Virus record (IMG/VR): IMGVR_UViG_3300010261_000001
Coordinates: 6,378 to 70,377 of that record
Origin: a virus
Lineage: Duplodnaviria; Caudoviricetes
Length of the DNA: 64,000 bases
Strand: one strand, 5' to 3'
The notes beneath the pieces are model-generated. The model was not told the origin of the DNA and searched no databases. It saw nothing but the letters and a program-made list of their open reading frames with translations. Both the position numbers and the translations under genes were made by a program. How positions within the stretch are numbered: the stretch's first letter is position 1; each line of letters begins with the position of its first letter. Shown piece after piece: positions 1,726-58,719 of the stretch.

Positions 1726-4086
1726 TTAACTCATGCTTAATCTTTTTTTCTTTAATTTGTAAAAATATCTTTCTAGCATAGGTTCTAGTTGCTTTTCTAC
1801 CTCTTTTTTTATATCTGCTATTTCCTTTGGGTTAGATGTTTGAGGATAAATATTAATTGTAGGGGCAAATGTATCAGATTGTACTGTATTTGAATTACTG
1901 CTTGTTGTGTTATTTAGTATTTTTTTAGTTTCATTAGCTGTTTTAACCTTGTATCCTTGAGGAAGATTTCTTGTTTGTTTGCCTATTACAAGTTCTGGTC
2001 CTCTTTCTGCTAATTCTGTAAGGCCACCTTTCCAATAGTTAGTGCCTGTTGCATTACGTCCTATTCGTCCTTCTTTATATCTATTTGTTGACTTTTGGAA
2101 CTTTTCTTTTATTGTTGCTATTTTAGGTTGTAGTTTGGTTTTATTCCATTCCTTAAGTTTTTCTATGCCACTTTTTATTCCTTCTCCAACCTTTTTAAAG
2201 GCACCTTTAATTTTATCTAGATTTTTAATTATTAATACACCAGCTACTATTGCTCCGGCTATTGCTAATCCCCATGGGGTAAATAATCCTCCTAACAATG
2301 GTTTGACAAAACCTGCAAACTTGGCTATACCACCACCTAAAAAGCCAAACATTTTAAATAGATTACTTCCAAGCTTTATAGCTCCACTTATGCCTTTTAG
2401 GAACACTTTGCCTACCATTAACACTGGTCCTATAGCTGCTGCTAATGCACCTATCTTTACTATTGTTTCCTGTGTAGCTGGACTTAGTTCTGTAAACTTC
2501 TTTGTCCAATCTCTAACTGTCTCTGCTATATCTCTTACTGTAGGTTTTAAGACGTCACCGACTGTTATAGCTGCACCTTCTAAAGCACTCTTCAATGACC
2601 TAAAAGCACCACCTATATTGTCTTCGTTTACATCTGCCATTCTTTGTGCTTCACCTGTGTATTCTCTTGTAGCTTGAGTAAGCTTTGCATAATCTTCATT
2701 ACTTGCATTTATAATCGACAACATGCCACTCATAGCTTCTTTACCGAATATTGTCGATGCGTATTGTGCTTGCTGTTCTTTAGATAATCCTCTAAACTTA
2801 CTTCTCATATCATCCATTACAGTCTTGAAGGGTTTCATGTTTCCATCTGCATCTGTGATTTTTAATCCTAATTTTTCCATAGCAGTAGCCATGCTATCAG
2901 TTGGTTTTACAAGGTTTGTTATTGCACCTCTTAATGCTGTACCTGCTTTCGAGCCTTTTACACCTGCGTTAGCCATTAAACCTAGTGCTAAAGCCGAATC
3001 CTCTGCTGTATATCCTAGTGAACCAAATAATGGAGCCACATATGAAAATGATTCGCCTAGCATACCAACATTAGTATTAGAGTTCGAACTTGCACTTGCC
3101 AATAGATCTGCGAATTTAGTTGAATCCTTTGCTTGCATTCCAAATGCCGATAAAGCATCCGTTACAATGTCAGATACACCCGCGAGGTCTTCGCCACTTG
3201 CTGCAGCTAATGCCATTACACCTTCTATGCCTGCTAACGATTGTCGTGCATTCCATCCTGCCATTCCCATATAAGTAAAAGCTTCTCCAGCTTCACTAGC
3301 ACTAAATTTTGTGTCACGACCCATCTGTAATGCTTTTGTTCTTAATTGGTCGAATTCTTCTTGACTTGCATTAGTAATACCTCGAACTTGTGACATTGTA
3401 TCGTCAAAACTTGCAGTTGTCTTTATTGCTGCTGCGCCAACGCCGACCATAGGTAATGTAACTCTAGTCGTAAGAGTTTTTCCGACTTGGTCCATCTTGT
3501 CGCCAATTGCATTTATTTTGCTTGTAACATTGTTTACTTTAAAGTTTTTTAACTCTTTATTAAACTCTGCATGTTGAACTCTTAGATCTAAGATGTGGTC
3601 TTCGAGTTTCTGTGCTTCTTTTGAGTTGTCTCCATATTTCCTTTTAGTTTCTTCCAATACAGGGTTAAGCTTTTTAATCTCATTACTAAGTATTTTTGTT
3701 TTTTCTTTTAATACTTGAGATTTTTTACTATTCTTTCTTAATACTATCGCTACTTTGTTTGCAGATAGTTCCCAAAGCTTATGTTGTTTGTTTAGTCTAT
3801 CAATAGACCTTGATGTTGCGTCAGAGCTTTCCTTTATTTTAGATTCTAGTCCCTTAATTTCCATTGTGGCTGTTTTCGACTTTGTCCCTAATTTAGACAA
3901 TCCCTTGGCTGTTTTCTTCGTTGTATCGCCAAATTTAGACGTTGCCATTTCTGTAGTTTTAACATTTGCACCCATTTTGCTAAATCCATCTTTAACTGCA
4001 TCAACTTTGTTGTCAACTTTATTAAGTTCTGGAGTAGCCATATCCCTATATTGAATTTCAACTAAAAGCTCTCTTAATGAATCCAT
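1726..4086 (-). CDS. Tail tape measure protein (TP901-type core)
   Basis: 786 aa; TKFSASEAGEA, GMLGESFSYVAP, GLTELAERGPELV motifs; follows the chaperone gene. Confidence 0.92.
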   Translation of the reverse strand: MDSLRELLVEIQYRDMATPELNKVDNKVDAVKDGFSKMGANVKTTEMATSKFGDTTKKTAKGLSKLGTKSKTATMEIKGLESKIKESSDATSRSIDRLNKQHKLWELSANKVAIVLRKNSKKSQVLKEKTKILSNEIKKLNPVLEETKRKYGDNSKEAQKLEDHILDLRVQHAEFNKELKNFKVNNVTSKINAIGDKMDQVGKTLTTRVTLPMVGVGAAAIKTTASFDDTMSQVRGITNASQEEFDQLRTKALQMGRDTKFSASEAGEAFTYMGMAGWNARQSLAGIEGVMALAAASGEDLAGVSDIVTDALSAFGMQAKDSTKFADLLASASSNSNTNVGMLGESFSYVAPLFGSLGYTAEDSALALGLMANAGVKGSKAGTALRGAITNLVKPTDSMATAMEKLGLKITDADGNMKPFKTVMDDMRSKFRGLSKEQQAQYASTIFGKEAMSGMLSIINASNEDYAKLTQATREYTGEAQRMADVNEDNIGGAFRSLKSALEGAAITVGDVLKPTVRDIAETVRDWTKKFTELSPATQETIVKIGALAAAIGPVLMVGKVFLKGISGAIKLGSNLFKMFGFLGGGIAKFAGFVKPLLGGLFTPWGLAIAGAIVAGVLIIKNLDKIKGAFKKVGEGIKSGIEKLKEWNKTKLQPKIATIKEKFQKSTNRYKEGRIGRNATGTNYWKGGLTELAERGPELVIGKQTRNLPQGYKVKTANETKKILNNTTSSNSNTVQSDTFAPTINIYPQTSNPKEIADIKKEVEKQLEPMLERYFYKLKKKRLSMS

Positions 4087-4098
4087 TTATTCACCACC

Positions 4099-4510
4099 TT
4101 ACTTTTGTGGTTTAGGTGCGTATAAATCCACTGCCATTTCCGCTTCTTTTAGCTCTTCATATGTCATATCCTTTGCGTCTGTGTAACTTAGCCATCCTTT
4201 GATTACAAGTTGCCACATCAATCCCTTATTCTTTACTGTCTTTTCTATCTGCTTTTTCGGTATCTCTGGAAGTAAGAAAGTTTTCGATTTCTACCCCCAG
4301 TTCTATACCAGATTCATAGTCATCATCAAAATCTTCTAGAGTTACATGTGGTTTTACAACACAATGTTTAAATAATTCAGCCATATATGGTGTTCTTAAA
4401 AGTTTGCCATGCTTATCTGTATGTCTATCGTTTATCTCCATGTAGCTTCTAAATGGTATTGCTTGTAGAGCATATTCTACTCCGTTTATTTCAATTGTCT
4501 TTTGTCTCAT
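4099..4510 (-). CDS. Frameshifted tail assembly chaperone (GT), +1 shift near 4274-4282
   Basis: +1 frame open from the AAC TTT CTT site to TAA at 4099-4101 (LLPEIPKKQ...LMWQLVIKGWLSY...). Confidence 0.6.
4226..4510 (-). CDS. Tail assembly chaperone (G)
   Basis: Between tail tube and tape measure genes. Confidence 0.75.
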   Translation of the reverse strand: MRQKTIEINGVEYALQAIPFRSYMEINDRHTDKHGKLLRTPYMAELFKHCVVKPHVTLEDFDDDYESGIELGVEIENFLTSRDTEKADRKDSKE

Positions 4511-5996: not shown

Positions 5997-6503
5997 TCAT
6001 TCCTCCTTCTTTAGGTTGCTTTTTTCTATTGTTTCTAGTCTTAGTTTCTGTATATCCATAACTCTTATAGCTACATCAAATCCTTGTCGTCTTTCATAAT
6101 TATCTACTATTTGAATTGTCCTGTCTTGGATATTCGATATATCCACTACTACAATTCCGTTATCTTTTAAAAATCTATACCCTTGGAATTTAAACCACGA
6201 TTCCATTTCTAATGCTAGTTGAAAAGCTTCCACATCATCTGTGCTATATGCATTCATAGATATGATCATCTTTGGCTGTTCTTCTCTCGTATATTCAACG
6301 TCATATTCAAATCTTTCGTCCTTTGATGGAACTATATCTTTATATAAGTTGTGTGAGCCCTGATGTATCTTTAGAGTAGTAAATTTATAGCTTATATAAG
6401 GGTAATCAGGCTTATCTCCAATGTCATCCGTTGGCACTACTGGTACATTCAAATAGTCATATAACCCTTTTACTATTGCATTTCTTATTTCTCTATAATC
6501 CAT
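5997..6503 (-). CDS. Tail terminator/neck protein
   Basis: P.YPYISY motif; position before sheath. Confidence 0.65.
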   Translation of the reverse strand: MDYREIRNAIVKGLYDYLNVPVVPTDDIGDKPDYPYISYKFTTLKIHQGSHNLYKDIVPSKDERFEYDVEYTREEQPKMIISMNAYSTDDVEAFQLALEMESWFKFQGYRFLKDNGIVVVDISNIQDRTIQIVDNYERRQGFDVAIRVMDIQKLRLETIEKSNLKKEE

Positions 6504-7365: not shown

Positions 7366-7628
7366 AGAAATCTAGCCTTTTTGATTACATATGGTCTAAT
7401 TAGCGACTTTACGTCATTGGGTAGCCCTTTTAATTCAAAATAGCTTTGTTTTAAATCTGCTATACCTTCGCTTTGTATTGTAGAATCCCTTTGGCCATAC
7501 TTAGCTAATTTCTCTACCGCTAATTGTATAGGAGCTGGAGCATTTGTAATGTCTTTTATCTTGTCTAGTTCAGGGTTCTTACAATAAGCTTGTATATATT
7601 CAAAATACGCTTGTTTTTCGTCAATCAT
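7362..7628 (-). CDS. Head-tail connector (gp15/gp6-like)
   Basis: Position after capsid; size. Confidence 0.6.
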   Translation of the reverse strand: MIDEKQAYFEYIQAYCKNPELDKIKDITNAPAPIQLAVEKLAKYGQRDSTIQSEGIADLKQSYFELKGLPNDVKSLIRPYVIKKARFL

Positions 7629-27475: not shown

Positions 27476-28426
27476 TCTTTATCTCTCTCCTTTCCAATTC
27501 AACAATTTCACATGAAGTAGTAACATAATCAACTCTTCTACCTATAAGATATTGAAGCACATCTTCTATATCATCAATTAATACACTTTTTATAAAAGCT
27601 CCTTGGCTTATTGGTAATTCTCTTACCGTTATTGGATAAGGTATATCTAAACCTAACTTATCAGCTGTACCTACGATTACATCAACTCTTTGCGTATCTT
27701 TACATACGATATATTTCCACTCTTTATTTGACATTTTGACTAATTCCGTTGTTTTCCCTTGTCCTCTATCTGCTCTTATGATTTTCATTTACTCCACCTC
27801 GCCTTTTGTTTTTTTACTAAATGCCCATACAGGACAACTGCCCTTCTTTCTTTTATAACTTTCAAGCCACCAACCCGCACAAGGTTCTCCATCATCATTT
27901 ATCCCAGCTCTCCATTTTACATACATTTCTAAAACTTCATATTGCCCTATTTCTTTTCCGACTTTGTCAGGTTCACATTCTCTTTCAAATACTTCTATTG
28001 CTTCTTGTTTGGTGTATTTTTCTGCATTAACTGCAAAATCTTCCCATCCCCCATAAAAACTAGCATATTCAAATTTACTCACCTATTCCACCTCGCCTTT
28101 TATTTCTAGTAATTCTTGTATAATTGCACTTGCTTCCTGTTTAGTTAAGCTGTCAATGTCAACCTCTGGCTCTTGCCCTAATTCTTCATAAAGACTTAAT
28201 ATAAAATTCTTTTGGTTAACAGTTATCACCTATTCCACCTCCCTTTTTAATAGAATTCGCTATAATCCTTTGGTTTTATATAAAGCAGATGTACATTGCC
28301 GAGATATGTTTTTTCTATTTTAATAATGTTTTCTTTTGGTATTTCTTTGTAATTGAGGAAATCAATCAGTAGTTGATAACTGCTAAAACATTTATATTTA
28401 TACTCATAATCTAAGCAATCCTTCAT

Positions 28427-28975
28427 CTATTCCACCTCCACTAACTTCATCACATAGTCATACATATCTACTGTGATTTTACTTATGCTTTGTATCTTCT
28501 CTATTGCTTCTCTTCTCCGTCTCTTTGCCTGATCTTTGCTCATGTAGTTATCTCTCTTTAGCTGTTCTAGTACTTCAGCCCAAGTTCTATTTTCTATATA
28601 GAATAACTTTAGTATCTTTTGCTGTGTAGGAGATAATCGCTTAAATGCTATGTCTAGCTTGTCATTAACCAATTCAATATAAAGTTTTTCTTCTAGTAGA
28701 TGTTTTTTAGTTTCTTTCATGTCCTTGTCCCACATCTGCTCTGCATTAAGTGCCGTATCTCCTGTTGTATCGCTTAATTTACCCGAATGTGGAGAATCGC
28801 TTAATACTTTATTTCCTATGATTTTAGTGTAAATATCATCGTCTGTAATCCCTGTTTTACTTGTACATTCATATAGTTCCAGTTCTCTCTCTAGGCTTTC
28901 TCTTATGCCTTGCAAAGTCGGCCACTTCTTAAAAAGTTCTTCTGTTTGAATGTAGCTAATATATTCCTGTGCCAC
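28427..28975 (-). CDS. ArpU/RinA/sigma-region-4-like transcriptional activator
   Basis: C-terminal LSPTQQKILKLFY..TWAEV HTH. Confidence 0.65.
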   Translation of the reverse strand: MAQEYISYIQTEELFKKWPTLQGIRESLERELELYECTSKTGITDDDIYTKIIGNKVLSDSPHSGKLSDTTGDTALNAEQMWDKDMKETKKHLLEEKLYIELVNDKLDIAFKRLSPTQQKILKLFYIENRTWAEVLEQLKRDNYMSKDQAKRRRREAIEKIQSISKITVDMYDYVMKLVEVE

Positions 28976-29800
28976 AATTTCACCCCTTTACCAGCTTTTA
29001 AACATTTGATTATATGATGTTCTTAGATATCCTTTCTTAAACCTTTTTTCCCTTTTGGTTTTGCCTAAATCTTGCTTGAGTATTCCTCTTTGTTTTTCAC
29101 TATTTGCTATGAGTATCTCCCTGAAGTTTCCCCCAAGGAAATACAGTTCAACTATTTGGTCTATGAGTTTATTCATCTTTCATCACCAATCCTTGCAATA
29201 AAATCAATTGCATTTTGTAACTCCTCAATAGTTTTCTTTACATCCGATATAGAACTAAAGTCTATTTCGTCCATGTTTTCTGCATCTTCAATACTTACAT
29301 AATATTTTTCTATGTCTGCGTCTATCTCGTCATCTTCTCTTTCCCATATGTTTAATTCATATTCGTTGCAATTAGTACCTGTAAATTGAAATCTCTTTTT
29401 TAATATTGCCATTTATTTGTCCCCTTTCTCCATGTAACGCTTATTGTCCTTGCCTTGTTGTCGCCTTTACGTTAGAGTTAAATTGTTCTAAACATTTAAC
29501 TCTAGCTTGCAAATTATTTATCTTTCATCATCTCTCTTAGATGTTCATTGTATCTTGTTAAGCTTGCGTTCTTTGTTATTAGGTCCAGAGCTTGTTTCTC
29601 TAATTCGCTTATTTTCATCAGCTGTTCATTACTGTCGCATATGTCTTGTCCCATTTGTAAGTGTTTTTCTGTATATTCTTTATCTATCTTTGCTCTTTGA
29701 AGATTTAATGTTAGTAAGATGAAGTTGAATCCTACATTTATGAAACAATATATCGTTAATGCTATTTCCCATAATTTCATTTAATTTACCTCCTTTTTTC

Positions 29801-29828
29801 ATTGCGTATAATGCTGGTTATGTGTCTT
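29801..29828. repeat. dif/Xer-like site 3
   Basis: ATTGCGTATAA-TGCTGG-TTATGTGTCTT. Confidence 0.7.
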
Positions 29829-30390
29829 ATCTGATTAAAATTAACGGATTGTCTACACCTTTTAACTTTAAAAGTTTATATCGTTCATAATGACTTAGCT
29901 TTCTAATTTTACCTATTGTTTCATCTGAAAATTTATCTAAATTCCTTTTAAAATATTTAAAATTCCCCTTCTTTTTAGATAGTCCTAACTTGTTTAATAT
30001 TAGATTTTCTAAATCTTTGCAAGATGATAGCCCATTGTTTACATCTTTTATTAACTGAGCTTTTACATGTTCTCTTATAGATGTATCTTCTACAAGTTGA
30101 GTCTTTAACTTCTTAAACTTACTTTTAGCATGTTTAGCATTATTGAAACGATACATATTAAACTTTCCTTTAAAAAAAGCATGTTTAGCATTATTTATTG
30201 AATTGAAAGCCCCATTCACTTCAGAAGAATAATAAAACTCATGTACTGTTAGGCTTATTGGTAGCTTTTCTTCTTTTGGACATATGTCATACTCACATTC
30301 TCCAATTCCACAGCACTTACAGCATTCAAATCCTTCTAACACTCCACAACTTACTGTATACTTTCTACAATCTTCACAACTCATTTCCAT
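29827..30390 (-). CDS. Cassette gene, Cys-rich N-terminus, unknown function
   Basis: 187 aa; bounded by dif-like sites. Confidence 0.65.
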   Translation of the reverse strand: MEMSCEDCRKYTVSCGVLEGFECCKCCGIGECEYDICPKEEKLPISLTVHEFYYSSEVNGAFNSINNAKHAFFKGKFNMYRFNNAKHAKSKFKKLKTQLVEDTSIREHVKAQLIKDVNNGLSSCKDLENLILNKLGLSKKKGNFKYFKRNLDKFSDETIGKIRKLSHYERYKLLKLKGVDNPLILIR

Positions 30391-30404
30391 TCCTCCCTTT
30401 TTTC

Positions 30405-30432
30405 ATTGCATATGATACTTGTTATGTGCATT
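30405..30432. repeat. dif/Xer-like site 2
   Basis: ATTGCATATGA-TACTTG-TTATGTGCATT. Confidence 0.7.
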
Positions 30433-30698
30433 TAATCTAACCCCAATTCTACCATAGTTCTTTTACTCATTATCAAATCACTATCTAATCCATAGATAAC
30501 AATATTATCACTAACAATACTTGGTAATCTTAACAAATCATCTATACAATTAATTGTTAAATCTGCTTTAAATATTCCTTCATCATCAACTCTTACATTA
30601 TCAAATGTCACTTCACCAGTTAATGCCTTGATAAAATATTCCTTTTGAAACTCTAAATCTCCATCCAGTTTAAGTGCTTCCCATAATTCGAATTTCAT
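30432..30698 (-). CDS. Cassette gene, unknown function
   Basis: 88 aa; bounded by dif-like sites. Confidence 0.65.
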   Translation of the reverse strand: MKFELWEALKLDGDLEFQKEYFIKALTGEVTFDNVRVDDEGIFKADLTINCIDDLLRLPSIVSDNIVIYGLDSDLIMSKRTMVELGLD

Positions 30699-30715
30699 AT
30701 TTATCCCCTTTCTTT

Positions 30716-30743
30716 ATTGCATATAAATAACATTATCCGCCCT
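30716..30743. repeat. dif/Xer-like site 1
   Basis: ATTGCATATAA-ATAACA-TTATCCGCCCT. Confidence 0.65.
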
Positions 30744-31242
30744 ATCTGCCTGTACTTCCAAAGCCTTTAGTATTCCTTTCTGTTTCGCTCAATTCATCTA
30801 CAAATTCCAACTCTGGCTGTTCATATGGAATAATAATCATCTGTGCTACTCTATCACCTTTCTTGATGGTGTAGGGTTCTTTGCCTTCGTTGATAAGTCT
30901 TATGCCTATGTCGCCCCTGTAATCTTCGTCTATAATGCCTACATCATTTATCAGGCTTATTTGTCGTTTGTAACTTAGTCCCGACCTTGCTACTACCATT
31001 CCAAAACGTCTGTGTGGTATTTCTACTGCTAGTTTAGATTTAATGTCCACGATATCCCCTGGATTAATTGTTACTTCCTCATTTGCTCTTAGGTCCAATC
31101 CCGCTGCATACTCATTTGCATATGATGGTTTTTCACCTTTGCACACCACTTTCATTTCATGGTTACGTTTAATGTTTCTAATTAATAAAACAAAGTTAAT
31201 ACATATTAAAATCAATATTACTATCTCGACAAAAGTTATCAT
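30742..31242 (-). CDS. dut: Trimeric dUTPase
   Basis: AAGLDL, RSG, GIIDEDYRG, GDRVAQ, RNTKGFGSTG. Confidence 0.95.
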   Translation of the reverse strand: MITFVEIVILILICINFVLLIRNIKRNHEMKVVCKGEKPSYANEYAAGLDLRANEEVTINPGDIVDIKSKLAVEIPHRRFGMVVARSGLSYKRQISLINDVGIIDEDYRGDIGIRLINEGKEPYTIKKGDRVAQMIIIPYEQPELEFVDELSETERNTKGFGSTGR

Positions 31243-32556
31243 TCAAAATCTTCCTCCTTTAAATCAACCACATATAATAGATGACTCCCTGCTTTAAATT
31301 CTGGGCAATCTTTACTTCTCCCTCGACCATGTTTTTCGATATATTCAAGATTATAAGGTTCTATTTCTGTGCCTTTTTCTTCAAGACAAAGCATACAAGA
31401 ATCTTCAAAATAATGTATGCATTTATGGTCCATACAAAATGAATTTGTATATGTTGCCTTCATGCTCAAAACCTCCTATTTCCTTTTTACGCGTTCTAAT
31501 ATTCTTATTAATGTAATTACTACTATTGCTATAATTAGTCCATCTATAAATGTCATATTGCCTCCTAATTTACCATTTTATATAGTTCTCTCTTAGTTTC
31601 TGTTGGTATTATTTCTCCTATAGTTATAAATCCTTTTTCATCATTTTCTTTATCTCTTGTAAAAAGCCTGATTAGTTTTTTAATCCAACTTTTTACCCTG
31701 GATAACATTTTTATTCCTCCTGTTCTTCTATTTTTATATTTCTCACGCCTTCAAAATAGCCTTTAAGGTATTTTTCTACATCACTTTCAAATGATGTCAA
31801 TAATTCGTTTATTTCATCTGACCCACATGTACCACTATCAAAGTCGAATGTTAACTGTATTTTAACGTTGTTTCTATTCTGCTCTCTTATTGCTTGGCAT
31901 ACATCTTCGCAATGTTCTTTGTATTGACAGTAGTCGCAACACTCTTCACAAAGTTTACTTCCAATATATTTGTTATAAGCTATTTTAACTTTGCAATAAG
32001 CCGCTGATTCTTGGTCGCATTTATCCATTTTTTATTCCTCCTTTATGTTGTTTTTGATGATTTCTGCCAATCTCTGTAACCTCTTGTCTCCGAATCCAAA
32101 CTCGGACCTAAGCCCATCTTCTGTAGCTTTTAATCCCGCCATAATTCCTTTTAAAAATATTTGTTTTTCATACTCTCTTAATACTGTTGGATCAACCTTT
32201 GCTAATTGCCTTTGTGCATATCTTTTTTGTTGCCTACTCACGCTTACCAACCTTCTTTTCTAGTTCATCTACTCGTTTTGTTAATTCTTCAATTTTCTTA
32301 GTGCTTGTACATTTATTAATGTTTTCTTCTATTTCATCTATTCGTGACATTAAGCCTTCTATAGCGTCTATGTTAGAGTTTTTAATGCTGGTTTGGATGT
32401 AATCTTTTAATAGTGGTTTCAATGTTCCAAAATACCCTACATTGACCCATATTTCATTGCCTTTGTTTTTCCCTGATTGAGCTATTCTCTTTTCTTCTAA
32501 AATAAAGTTTAATGGATCAGTTGTGATTCTATAATTTTCATCTAATTGAATATTCA

Positions 32557-48157: not shown

Positions 48158-49003
48158 TCAGTTTGCGTAATATTCTTCAATCGCATTAAATAACAATATA
48201 GAAAAATATTTAGTTTTATTCTTTATGTAAGTATTGTTTTTTGCTCCTTTAAACTTATTTAAAGCATAATCACATACATTAAAATCTAATTCATTTAGCT
48301 TGTCCATTATTTCTTCATTGTTATAAACTCTATTCTTTACGTTAACTTCACGTAAATACATTAAATCTAAAATTGCATTCTCTATTAACTTCATATCTTT
48401 CACATCTTCAAATAAATACAATTGACATTTTCCACATATAAACTCGTGTTGTTTTTTCAGTCTGTCATTTTCGACTGACTGAGTATCAATAAAATCAGTA
48501 TCAATAAAATCAGTATCATTACCGTCCAATTTTTGGACTTCTTGAGGTCCGTTTTTTGGACTTCCTGAAGTCCGTTTTTTGGACTTCTCGTATTTTTCAA
48601 CGTTTGAAGGCAATTCGGGTTTTAGTATGTACATTCTATTCGTTTTGCCTTGCCCCATTCTCTTGTCTACTATTAGGTTATACTTAACCAATTCCTTTTT
48701 GTATTTCATAACTGTTTTTCTATCTACTTCTAATATTTCCATTAAACTTAACTCCCTAGGCTCCTTTTCTTCCACAGTCCTTTCGTCGTCCTTTGCTGGC
48801 TCTATTTTGAATAAAAGATATATATAACCATCTTCATCAACCCATTTGTTTTTTATGGATAAATCTTGTCTATCCCTTAAAATTGAATACATTGCCTTTG
48901 CTCCTAAAGATAGTCCTTTATATTTTTTGTTATTAAACAATGCTTTTGGCATTTGGTAGAACCTTAAATTTAGTTCTTCTTCCGCTTTGTAGAACCTTGA
49001 CAT
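48158..49003 (-). CDS. repA: Plasmid replication initiator, RepA_N family
   Basis: RFYQMPKALF, AKAMYSILRDR..LS.KNKWVDEDG.IY. Confidence 0.88.
   Translation of the reverse strand: MSRFYKAEEELNLRFYQMPKALFNNKKYKGLSLGAKAMYSILRDRQDLSIKNKWVDEDGYIYLLFKIEPAKDDERTVEEKEPRELSLMEILEVDRKTVMKYKKELVKYNLIVDKRMGQGKTNRMYILKPELPSNVEKYEKSKKRTSGSPKNGPQEVQKLDGNDTDFIDTDFIDTQSVENDRLKKQHEFICGKCQLYLFEDVKDMKLIENAILDLMYLREVNVKNRVYNNEEIMDKLNELDFNVCDYALNKFKGAKNNTYIKNKTKYFSILLFNAIEEYYAN
48482..48590. repeat. Iterons within repA (plasmid ori)
   Basis: GTCC-N7-GGAC x3 at 23-bp period (48524, 48547, 48570); 15-bp AGTATCAATAAAATC tandem. Confidence 0.8.
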
Positions 49004-49047
49004 AAAAAATACCTCCAATTTGTATGTATGAAGGTATAAATTTGCTA

Positions 49048-49210: not shown

Positions 49211-49493
49211 AATCGTCATATATGCCTATGTTTTTTAATTTATTTTTTAATAAATTGTCTTTTGTATAGTTTTTGGACTCTATAATTGCTCTAGGTGCGT
49301 TTTTATATTCTTTCTCGATAATTTCCTTTACTATATCCTCTATGTCTTTGCTGTCGGCTTTGTAGTGCTTCAAATAATACTTGGCTGCATTTACAAAGAA
49401 TCCGCTAACATTAACTTTATCTTTTTCTAGTTTTTCTATATGAACTATAACATCTTTATCAGATTCTTCACTTAAATAGATAGTCTTTCTCAT
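49209..49493 (-). CDS. ParR-like adaptor
   Basis: Small RHH-like protein coupled to parM. Confidence 0.65.
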   Translation of the reverse strand: MRKTIYLSEESDKDVIVHIEKLEKDKVNVSGFFVNAAKYYLKHYKADSKDIEDIVKEIIEKEYKNAPRAIIESKNYTKDNLLKNKLKNIGIYDD

Positions 49494-50449
49494 TTTACTA
49501 GATCACCCATTTCATAAAATCCCTTGCAATTTGCAAATTGGCTTTCTTCCATGTTAAACATAAAATCTGCGTCTTTAAAATATTTGTCTAAGTAATCCAT
49601 TAGCATAAAGCTAGTTCCGCCTACAAAAGCTACGTTGTACAGCTCTTTATTGATATTATTCTTGTTTAATTCTTCTAGTATATTGATCTCGATATACTTA
49701 GATATTTCTTCGTTGATTTTCTTGCTTGTATCTTCTAAGCTAAGCACATCATTTTTTAGATATCCATTTGATATAGCTGTTCTCATAACTGCATTTGTGA
49801 TATTCTCTATACCTTCGCTTTCAAAACTATTTATAAGCGTTTGCTCTATCGTAGTTCCACCTGCATTTTTTGAAAACATCTTATCGACATTTGGGACCAT
49901 ATCATCAAATAAGATTACATTAAGGTTCTGGCCTCCTATATCTATTACAAGCGTATTTTGATTAAGAAATAGATCCGGCCTTAAAACTGTTATTCCTGCT
50001 CCCTCTGGTCTAATTCTTATACGTTCAAATTCAAAGTAATAATCTTCCCCATCTACTTTTATATCAACTTTTCCATTTCCATGGATATTTTGTTTATATT
50101 CTTCTTTTAGGTCCGCATTCTTAAAGATAGTGGCTGGACAACCTGTGATTAAATCGATTTTGTGACTTGTATTTGGCGTAATAAATTGAGCAATTGCTAC
50201 ATATTGACATAGTTTATTGATTTCATCTGTTTTAGAAGTAGTATGATTCCTTTTAGTTCCACTATCACCTATTAGATATTCCTTTCCATTATAGACTATA
50301 TGATGAGTGTTACCTGCTACAATCGTGTCCCCACCTTCTTCAAAGCTGTAAATCTTGCTTTGAAACTTCTCTGTGACATATAATCCATTTTCTTTTATAC
50401 AAGCTTTCGTTGAATCTTTACCTGCATCTACACTAATTAACATTTTCAT
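49490..50449 (-). CDS. parM: ParM/StbA actin-like partition ATPase
   Basis: VDAGKDSTK, RPEG, IDIGGQNLN, VGG motifs. Confidence 0.9.
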   Translation of the reverse strand: MKMLISVDAGKDSTKACIKENGLYVTEKFQSKIYSFEEGGDTIVAGNTHHIVYNGKEYLIGDSGTKRNHTTSKTDEINKLCQYVAIAQFITPNTSHKIDLITGCPATIFKNADLKEEYKQNIHGNGKVDIKVDGEDYYFEFERIRIRPEGAGITVLRPDLFLNQNTLVIDIGGQNLNVILFDDMVPNVDKMFSKNAGGTTIEQTLINSFESEGIENITNAVMRTAISNGYLKNDVLSLEDTSKKINEEISKYIEINILEELNKNNINKELYNVAFVGGTSFMLMDYLDKYFKDADFMFNMEESQFANCKGFYEMGDLVK

Positions 50450-57253: not shown

Positions 57254-58719
57254 CTAATTCCCCTCCTTCAAGTCTTCTATATCCGTTATAGTTTCTTTTA
57301 CTTTTCCTCTAATTTTTAATCTCCCTTTGCGATCTCTTTTATAAATATAACTTTCGATAAATAATTGTTTATTATCCTTTTGCTTTTCTATTTCAGACTT
57401 AAAACTGTCTACTAAGTTTTCTTTTTTCCATAAGCATTTTAATATTCTTTCATCCAGTGTATAGGATGCACATAAATCTATTATGTGCACATTCTTATCC
57501 TGTCCTATCCTATGCACTCTATCTTCGCTTTGTGCTCTTGTAGCAAAGTCCCAATCATTTGAATAATACACAACATAACTACAAAACTGTAAATTAAGTC
57601 CATATCCAGCACATACTTTATTTGCCACTAAAAATTGAGCACCATTTCTAAAAACATCTATGTTTTTTTGCCTTTTTTTCTGATTTAGTTCTCCATAAAA
57701 AGGCACCGCCTTTCCTTCTCCATACTTTTTGTTTAATATCGCTGTGATAGTTTCGATTTCGTCTGTATATTTGCAAAATATTATTACCTTTTGATCCACG
57801 CCATCAAGCACCTCAAGCAATGTTTTTATTCTAGGATTATCATATGGAGTTTTAAAAAATGGTTCTCTTTTCATTGGACGTTCTGTCCTCGTTACCTTAA
57901 ATCCAGATATAACACTTTGTAAACCACTAAATAGCCTATATATGGTTTCCGGTTCTAGTTCATCCACTTCAAACAACAGTGTATCTGCAATTTCTTGATA
58001 ATGCCAATCTTGCATTTCATCTAATTCATAGTAAACAGTTTTGTATGATTTATTAGGTAAATCTAAGCACTCTTCTTTTCTCACCTGGTAAGTATATGGT
58101 GCTATTTTCCTTACTAAATAATCAGTATTTAAGCATCTATTAATTTTGCCCGGGATGTTAGGATCATATTCTAGGTGATTACCTGCAAAGCTCCAAAAGC
58201 TCCGATAACCTAGTATTCTCCAGTCTAAAATATACCACTGTGAAAACAAATCTTTTTCATTTCTGCTAATAGGTGTTCCGTTTAAAATTAATTTGTATTG
58301 GCAAAATTCGCTTAGTCGAATAATGTTTTTTGTCCTTTGAGCCATGTGATTTTTAACTAGATTGCTTTCGTCGACTATCAAATATACTTTTCTTTCCTGT
58401 ACTAACCTTAATAAAATAGAGTTAGCCCTAATACTGCTAGATAGTGTTTCTATGCCACATATAGTGAACATTGACAAATCACCTTCACAGTGCTTTTTTA
58501 TGTCTCTTTTTAGATTCTCCTTTACACTGCAAGGGCAAAGCCAAAGTACGTGATTAACTTTGCCCTTATCCAATCTATCTTTTATAAGTTCCAACGCTGT
58601 CCTAGTTTTTCCAGTTCCCATTTCAAGGCTTTCCAAAGATACAACGCTCCTACCTTTACTTTAGACAATTTTTCAACTGCTTTTTTCTGATGTTCATATA
58701 GGCTCGTTGTAAATCTCAT
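57254..58719 (-). CDS. SNF2-family helicase interrupted by 11-nt insert at 58625-58635
   Basis: Q motif LYEHQ in 58719 frame; EMGTGKT, DES, GYGLNLQ, QSEDRVHRIGQ in 58636 frame. Confidence 0.8.

Follow-up and report, generated by a model that had tools for sequence, protein, structure and literature searches.

It has long been asked how phages acquire and exchange their many small genes without known function, and at most mosaic joints there is no signal to be recognised. The question is raised here by a locus in the virus record IMGVR_UViG_3300010261_000001 (Duplodnaviria; Caudoviricetes), a linear IMG/VR record of 70.4 kb that is about 76% complete and of which a stretch of 64,000 nucleotides (positions 6,378 to 70,377, hereafter the window) was analysed. 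Within it, three 28-bp sites shaped like the targets of Xer recombinases delimit two small open reading frames (ORFs), and an earlier reading made from the sequence alone had proposed an integron-like cassette system driven by the XerC/XerD recombinases of a Firmicutes host. We show, at the level of sequence comparison, that these sites belong to a conserved boundary element with dyad symmetry, which separates the genes of a hypervariable and apparently promoterless accessory array ahead of a predicted late regulator, and that the element marks recombination joints in this array. What maintains the element, and what recombines at it, are weighed below.

Results

Three boundary sites in the window

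All genes of the 26-38 kb region lie on the minus strand, and the sites are therefore read on that strand, as the coding strand; in this direction the order is dut, site 3, P0002, site 2, P0001, site 1, P0003, a 79-aa gene, a 62-aa gene and a gene encoding a 182-aa regulator. The three 28-mers that the sequence-only reading had quoted were found at the same positions. Site 3 (30716..30743, minus strand) has the sense sequence AGGGCGGATAA-TGTTAT-TTATATGCAAT, followed by the linker AAGAAAGGGGATAAAT and an ATG, and belongs to what we call below class B; site 2 (30405..30432, minus strand), of class A, reads AATGCACATAA-CAAGTA-TCATATGCAAT, with the canonical CAAGTA spacer; and site 1 (29801..29828, minus strand) reads AAGACACATAA-CCAGCA-TTATACGCAAT and is assigned to class A with a diverged spacer. 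The arrangement described in that reading was also borne out: the upstream gene reaches 1-2 nt into each site with its stop codon (stops at 29827-29829, 30432-34 and 30742-44), after each site the coding strand has an A-run, then a GGAGG-type ribosome-binding site (RBS) and then an ATG, and each of the two intervening ORFs, of 88 aa (30432..30698) and 187 aa (29827..30390), is one site-to-site unit. The GC content drops here to 0.24-0.31, relative to about 0.33 overall. Sites 1 and 2 are parts of a 48-nt repeat with 79% identity that includes the A-run, the RBS and the ATG, whereas site 3 has only about 19 nt in common with them.

The significance of the sites was evaluated with a leave-out profile, built from the sites of other contigs only, without those of the window, and compared with 20 shuffles. 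It was found that site 2 ranked first in the 70-kb genome, with 18.6 bits (E 1e-4) relative to 10.4 bits for the best shuffle, and that sites 3 and 1 ranked second (8.7 bits) and fourth (7.4 bits), each being weak alone. Three of the top four matches thus lie on one strand within 0.9 kb. Because a profile made without them places site 2 first and sites 3 and 1 second and fourth, the sites of the window are not chance occurrences, although sites 1 and 3 are diverged members of the motif family.

A motif family in phage contigs

The motif was also located in more than 20 other phage contigs, from metagenomes of guts and fermenters, within a group of Clostridium-type phages. The family consensus on the sense strand is (T)GAACATAA-N6-TTAT(G/A)TG, an imperfect inverted repeat of about 20 bp with a 6-bp spacer, which fills the gap between stop codon and RBS. 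The 28-bp dif-like form, consisting of two 11-bp arms, a 6-bp centre and an inner ATAA...TTAT, is present, and the core CAYATAA-N6-TTATRTG was found in 24-30 members. Conservation does not cover the full arms: right-arm positions 8-11 are variable, the RBS taking their place in L344, L356, L333 and L111, and the outer left arm is only 50-70% conserved. The earlier reading had stressed that the three spacers all differ; this is true of the window, but across the family the spacers do not vary freely and fall into two conserved classes, A (CAAGTA) and B (TGTTAT, TGTTTT or TGATTA). In class A the spacer is more conserved than the arms, with CAAGTA in 9/12 sites.

The family profile comprised 16 sites, and further copies lay outside this training set. 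They include three copies each in G001 and G002, four in G003 and two each in G004 and G005 (IMG/VR records reached by 17-mer scans), five in the JGI contig L108, and others in the metagenome contigs L330, L333, L337, L344, L347, L350, L353, L356, L361 and L363. Two to five same-strand copies lie within 0.3-2.5 kb in G000-G005, L108, L099, L104, L105, L113, L330, L347, L350, L356 and L361, and profile searches of those genomes, including a 39-kb, 96%-complete provirus, found no copy outside the cluster. The upstream stop codon stands at a fixed 3-4 nt before the ACATAA core, and an RBS follows 0-15 nt after most copies; a few copies instead precede a terminator or lack a following RBS (L108 at 3068, L353, and G001 at 7497). 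The genes between copies are mostly singletons in the data set or ORFans, whereas the flanking genes belong to shared families. The order B...A recurs in at least 10 arrays that have unrelated content and unrelated flanking genes.

In two contigs, the last copy of the array runs directly into a rho-independent terminator-like hairpin and T-run (L108:3068-3140; L353 near 192, minus strand). A chromosomal, dif-like single copy was not found in the IMG/VR 17-mer scans or in the 19-mer metagenome scan, and most 17- and 19-mer matches were set aside as chance, given their contexts in cellulase or glycosyltransferase genes, an archaeal membrane protein or non-coding eukaryote-like DNA. Elsewhere in the window, a near-perfect palindrome at 57467-57489 (GCACATAA-TAGAT-TTATGTGC), inside a 460-aa ORF (57254..58636, minus strand), combines the arms of the boundary element with a spacer of 5 nt; its score against the leave-out profile is 7.9 bits, and chance may account for it.

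A variable slot between conserved genes

All relatives are metagenomic contigs, and the closer ones were reached through homologs of P0003 (70-77% identity). They have in common a backbone of a 107-aa gene, a 48-aa gene and dut, followed by P0003-like, 62-aa and 182-aa genes. When the cassette content after dut was compared, a check suggested in the sequence-only reading, 0, 2 or 3 different genes were found before the P0003-like gene. In L109/L110 there is nothing, the dut stop codon and the next ATG being 5 nt apart; the window has P0002 and P0001; L111/L112 have 82-, 55- and 48-aa genes; and L113-L117 have 66-, 52- and 97-aa genes (94 aa in L115). The dut of the window can be aligned with those of L109, L111 and L113 up to the dut stop codon. 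As located by a blastn map and the junction sequences, a 948-bp block with the three sites and the two ORFs (29794..30741, minus strand) is absent from L109. Relative to L109-type relatives, P0001 and P0002 are cassette-like insertions.

The sites of the relatives are placed comparably. L113 and L114 have a class B site ahead of the 97-aa gene and a class A site ahead of the P0003-like gene, and in L111 a B-type site after dut has the left arm of site 3, whereas its right arm and its downstream gene differ. Homologs of P0001 with 45-79% identity were found in L098-L107 in differing gene contexts; in L099, L104 and L105 a class B site stands on one side of the homolog and a class A site on the other, and in L102 an A-like site comes after it. 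Homologs of about 53% identity, annotated as hypothetical, are also carried by large C. botulinum and C. sporogenes plasmids (PLSDB H13-H20, e.g., NC_010418.1 and NC_010379.1), and no boundary motif flanks the Clostridium botulinum plasmid copy that was examined (L100). P0002 has one homolog, with 62% identity, in contig L108, beside its five motif copies.

Megablast and tblastn searches against named phages gave no matches, nor did genome-contig scans with the P0001 family and with the 182-aa regulator or an IMG/VR scan with the regulator. A pattern containing the RBS gave 95 single unrelated matches in IMG/VR and no relatives, and the distant dut relative L001 was too remote to be informative.

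Homology breaks at the element

The positions at which similarity between contigs begins or ends were evaluated in 435 pairs formed from 30 well-formed copies, of which six pairs had long one-sided similarity. The breaks in these six pairs lie at -14, -11, -11, -7, +5 and +12 nt from the spacer, and only one of the six informative junction sets involves the window directly. In the pair of site 3 and the L111 site, the break falls inside the spacer. Assembled contigs of the sequencing run that is the probable source contained no joints or variants, a result that does not bear on circles or deletions.

The outer bases of the left arm track the upstream gene, AAGnCnCAT being found after every P0001 homolog, and those of the right arm track the downstream gene, with GCAAT ahead of P0003 in both the window and L113. 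Because the outer bases of each arm follow the gene on their own side, we take the element to be the crossover point. At site 1, the left arm has its homolog in the site that follows the P0001 homolog of L099, and the right arm in the site that precedes the P0003 homolog of L113/L114.

Not all joints fall within the 28 bp. The right arm of site 3 together with its RBS linker is common to L113/L114 and L105, whose downstream genes differ, and a 15-nt RBS linker, AAGAAAGGGGATAAT, is shared by site 3, L113_B and L105_B before three unrelated genes. Similarly, a class A site in G002 and a class B site in G001 have the identical right flank GCAACAG..GAAAGGAG. The P0001 homolog of L098 lies between copies of a different direct repeat, about 30 nt long (TAGGACAAGCAG.GGTGAT.A.AATAGA, at 3662-3731 and 4290-4330) that contains the type of RBS used throughout that phage. 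Because this repeat is unrelated to the boundary element, the duplication of a linker in this phage group needs no dif-like sequence.

Genes around the sites

The conserved upstream anchor of the variable slot is dut, encoding a dUTPase (30742..31242, minus strand; Pfam PF00692, E 8e-31). In the window it encodes 166 aa; in L113 (4243-5355), L114 (1901-3013) and L115 (81-1193) the dut products are of 370-372 aa and have a LAGLIDADG_2 domain absent from that of the window, which probably represents an intein or homing-endonuclease insertion.

Of the two cassette ORFs, P0002 encodes an acidic protein of 88 aa, and P0001 a protein with a Cys-rich N terminus and a helical bundle; the true start of P0001 is probably at 30384, which gives 185 aa as in the database copy. 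An AlphaFold model of P0001 (mean predicted local distance difference test score 63) has a three-helix core and leaves the Cys-rich N terminus unmodelled. The conserved downstream anchor, P0003 (29514..29780, minus strand), encodes 88 aa with an N-terminal membrane helix, and its homologs in L109-L117 always have the 62-aa and 182-aa genes downstream. Neither P0001 and P0002 nor P0003 matched a Pfam, PHROG or PADLOC family. The 182-aa protein (28427..28975, minus strand) resembles sigma-70 region 4, with a weak Pfam match and a match to phrog_36 (E 2e-10), and is likely a late-gene activator, as judged from these matches; its gene (family F1 in our array maps) closes the accessory region in all relatives.

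The contig encodes neither a tyrosine nor a serine recombinase, in agreement with the earlier reading. The tyrosine recombinase family PF00589 is absent from the six records G000-G005, and G004 has a large serine integrase at its end. A RepA_N replication initiator and a ParM-like actin (ALP_N/ParM) are encoded at 48158-49018 and 49490-50449 of the window, and these genes, together with the lack of an integrase gene in the 70-kb contig, are consistent with a phage-plasmid lifestyle. The large terminase is closest to the terminases of Clostridium perfringens phages (52% identity).

Two further regions near the array vary or repeat. A gene for a sigma factor of 223-227 aa (Sigma70_r2 and r4) lies between 110-aa and 94-aa genes in L111 (3286-3969) and L113 (2709-3380), and at this position the window (about 32032-32250) has only a 72-aa ORF, which makes this another variable slot. 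Just downstream of the regulator, four consecutive small genes on the minus strand are headed by repeated initiation regions (27785-27808, 28079-28102, 28226-28249, and upstream of the gene starting at 28426) with a sense sequence of approximately AAAAGGCGAGGTGGAATAG followed by GTG or ATG. This second family of repeated initiation regions is another sign of the reuse of intergenic linkers in this phage.

Discussion

Our preferred explanation, which we hold tentatively and with somewhat less than even confidence, is that a regulatory, protein-binding role preserves the element, which is then exploited as a short-homology linker, the principle proposed for the early-promoter stem-loop elements (PeSLs) of T4-type phages. 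The element would be maintained by a function of its own, most likely the binding of DNA by a dimeric protein, a putative regulator. Being the sole sequence common to otherwise unrelated cassettes, it would also act as a linker: whether two copies lie in co-infecting phages or in one genome, recombination between them, by the phage or the host, would insert, delete or replace the intervening genes, and excised circles with a gene and a linker may be an intermediate. The 948-bp block of site B, P0002, site A, P0001 and site A would have been gained in this way relative to L109-like phages; alternatively, L109 may have lost it via two GGAGG-containing junctions.

Several results weigh against this explanation. 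Sigma-70 promoter-like sites are not enriched (18 versus 22.8 expected) and none is common to the copies, and the element contains no terminator, neither a G+C-rich hairpin nor a T-run. For homologous recombination, an imperfect match of about 20 bp is a very short substrate. Moreover, the inverted repeat, the two discrete spacer classes and the B...A order fit a site-specific recombinase at least as well. We nevertheless place the short-homology linker first because conservation passes beyond the 28 bp to the RBS and ATG, because the linker in L098 is unrelated, because the outer arm is unconstrained and because the likeness to Firmicutes dif sites is at background level.

The second explanation, which is possible but which we consider somewhat unlikely, is that a host Xer-type tyrosine recombinase swaps the cassettes at 11-6-11 core sites, with classes A and B being heterospecific. 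An upstream B site and a downstream A site would then let unrelated phages replace cassettes, through a cointegrate or a circle, without deletion of the array. The form of the sites agrees with this, as the inner dyad CATAA-N6-TTATG is that of dif. Compared with Acinetobacter pdif (plasmid dif) sites, sites 1 and 2 match at 18/22 and 17/22 arm positions, among the top 3 of about 140,000 positions, although one chance site also scores 18 and so ties the best pdif score. The seven best matches to E. coli dif in the genome include all three sites, and the left arm of many members, ATTGAACATAA, matches the reverse of the E. coli XerD arm at 10/11; the earlier figure of 8/11 for either arm of site 2 against E. 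coli dif was not reproduced, the actual values being 6/11 and 8/11. A class A spacer conserved above its arms is expected if partner sites must match, and the repeated B...A order around unrelated content is what heterospecific sites would give. The fixed distance from stop codon to core amounts to a sharp left boundary, and a phage that carries the plasmid genes RepA_N and ParM and no recombinase of its own would suit an enzyme supplied by the host. The junctions at -14 to +12 nt of the spacer are compatible with Xer action and not diagnostic of it.

Other results argue against a host Xer enzyme. Relative to a Firmicutes dif set (B. subtilis, S. aureus, B. anthracis and the class Clostridia predictions in the supplement of Kono 2011), the sites score 14-16/22 arm positions, which 20-100 other places in this A+T-rich genome equal. 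Kono 2011 reported no reliable dif for Clostridium sensu stricto, and the prediction failed for C. perfringens and C. beijerinckii. Right-arm positions 8-11 are unconserved, and in four contigs the RBS lies there, while conservation extends to the RBS and the ATG whatever the downstream gene. Three sites in L108 have both orientation and spacer in common, an arrangement that Xer would be expected to delete; no site is left in L109, the empty state; and pdif modules alternate in orientation, whereas the phage sites are all direct. The proposal of an Xer-driven cassette system is supported in one part, in that the sites do bound gene units in a hypervariable slot, and is not supported in the other, the involvement of Xer, in that the likeness to Firmicutes dif is at background and the outer right arm is unconserved. 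The broader proposal, a recombinase-less exchange in which a Xer-family enzyme of the host swaps promoterless genes between unrelated phages or phage-plasmids, with TGTTAT upstream and CAAGTA downstream, is one that we regard as doubtful. If true, nature would have its own version of recombinase-mediated cassette exchange, one that differs from both integrons and pdif modules.

The third explanation is a purely regulatory element, either an operator or roadblock or an element of the 5′ untranslated region, that is copied along with genes and has no role in their shuffling; we judge it to be unlikely. Every copy has the sense orientation and occupies a short intergenic gap, in most cases directly upstream of an RBS, and the stoperators of mycobacteriophages have the same one-orientation, intergenic, many-copy pattern (PMC9283540). 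Sequence rather than structure is conserved. However, the copies occur only in the ORFan array, with none at promoters or elsewhere in the genome; some are followed by a terminator or by no RBS, as noted above for L108, L353 and G001; there is neither a promoter signal nor a shared RNA fold; and homology breakpoints lie at the element in every informative pair.

Candidates for a specific regulatory identity were compared and rejected. A shared RNA or single-strand hairpin is excluded, as class B folds (-4 to -9 kcal/mol) and class A, at about 0 kcal/mol, does not, and Rfam contained no relevant family for the element. The LexA, Fur/PerR, Rex, NrdR and ArgR sites, DnaA boxes and the T4 RegA operator have the wrong spacing or sequence, and this is also the case for promoters of extracytoplasmic function (ECF) and sporulation sigma factors and for a mini-ORF (ATG CAA TAA) inside some copies.

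Finally, it is highly improbable that there is no element and that AT-rich intergenic regions resemble one another by chance, for although sites 1 and 3 alone are within the range of shuffled genomes and many 17-19-mer matches in large collections are chance, site 2 is far above the shuffles, its companions are clustered with it on one strand among the top four matches, and the same motif recurs, in comparable positions, in more than 20 contigs.

A defined motif of 20-28 bp, with the shape of a recombinase site and two spacer classes, marks the joints of ORFan arrays in more than 20 phage contigs. The motif can also be used as a practical marker for arrays of accessory, possibly anti-defence, genes in such phages.

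Comparison with known systems

The stoperators of cluster A mycobacteriophages (PMC9283540) are like the present elements in having many copies in one orientation, in short gaps near stop and start codons. Stoperators are 13-bp asymmetric sequences that occur genome-wide, including at early promoters, and are bound by the immunity repressor, whereas the elements described here are dyads and, in each genome, occur only in a single ORFan stretch of 0.3-2.5 kb.

The arrays resemble integrons in that promoterless cassettes in one orientation lie in one transcription unit, each with a boundary like a recombination site, and in that relatives differ in their cassettes, most of which have no known function. 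Unlike integrons, they have no integrase gene (PF00589 being absent from the six records), no GTTRRRY core and no bulged hairpin of the attC type, and the elements are conserved in sequence and not in structure.

The pdif modules of Acinetobacter plasmids are bounded by XerC/XerD sites, adjacent sites alternating as C/D and D/C (PMC13141974, PMC6449649). The likeness consists of the 28-bp 11-6-11 form, of one arm that matches the pdif XerC arm at up to 10/11, of modules of gene size and of the absence of a recombinase in cis; spacer identity, too, would decide which sites pair. In pdif modules, however, both 11-bp arms are well conserved and match the dif of the host, and the orientation alternates, whereas the elements here are direct in every array, the outer part of one arm is free or is the RBS, and the replicon is a phage. 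If a host recombinase is responsible, the Xer-mediated module shuffling of Acinetobacter plasmids would be extended to phages of Gram-positive anaerobes.

The PeSLs of T4-type phages are mobile regulatory cassettes (Arbiol et al. 2010, PMC2839356; PMC4122927). A PeSL has a strong sigma-70 promoter together with a stem-loop terminator rich in G+C, and a genome contains about 50 of them, whereas the elements described here have no detectable promoter or terminator, form an inverted repeat with a 6-bp spacer, are present as 2-5 copies in one array and belong to phages of Firmicutes hosts. Both are short conserved intergenic motifs that reach from the stop codon to the Shine-Dalgarno sequence upstream of ORFans in a hyperplastic region, and both lie at the joints of insertion, deletion and replacement between related phages, with no dedicated recombinase. 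If no host recombinase is responsible, the PeSL principle would be extended beyond the T4-type phages.

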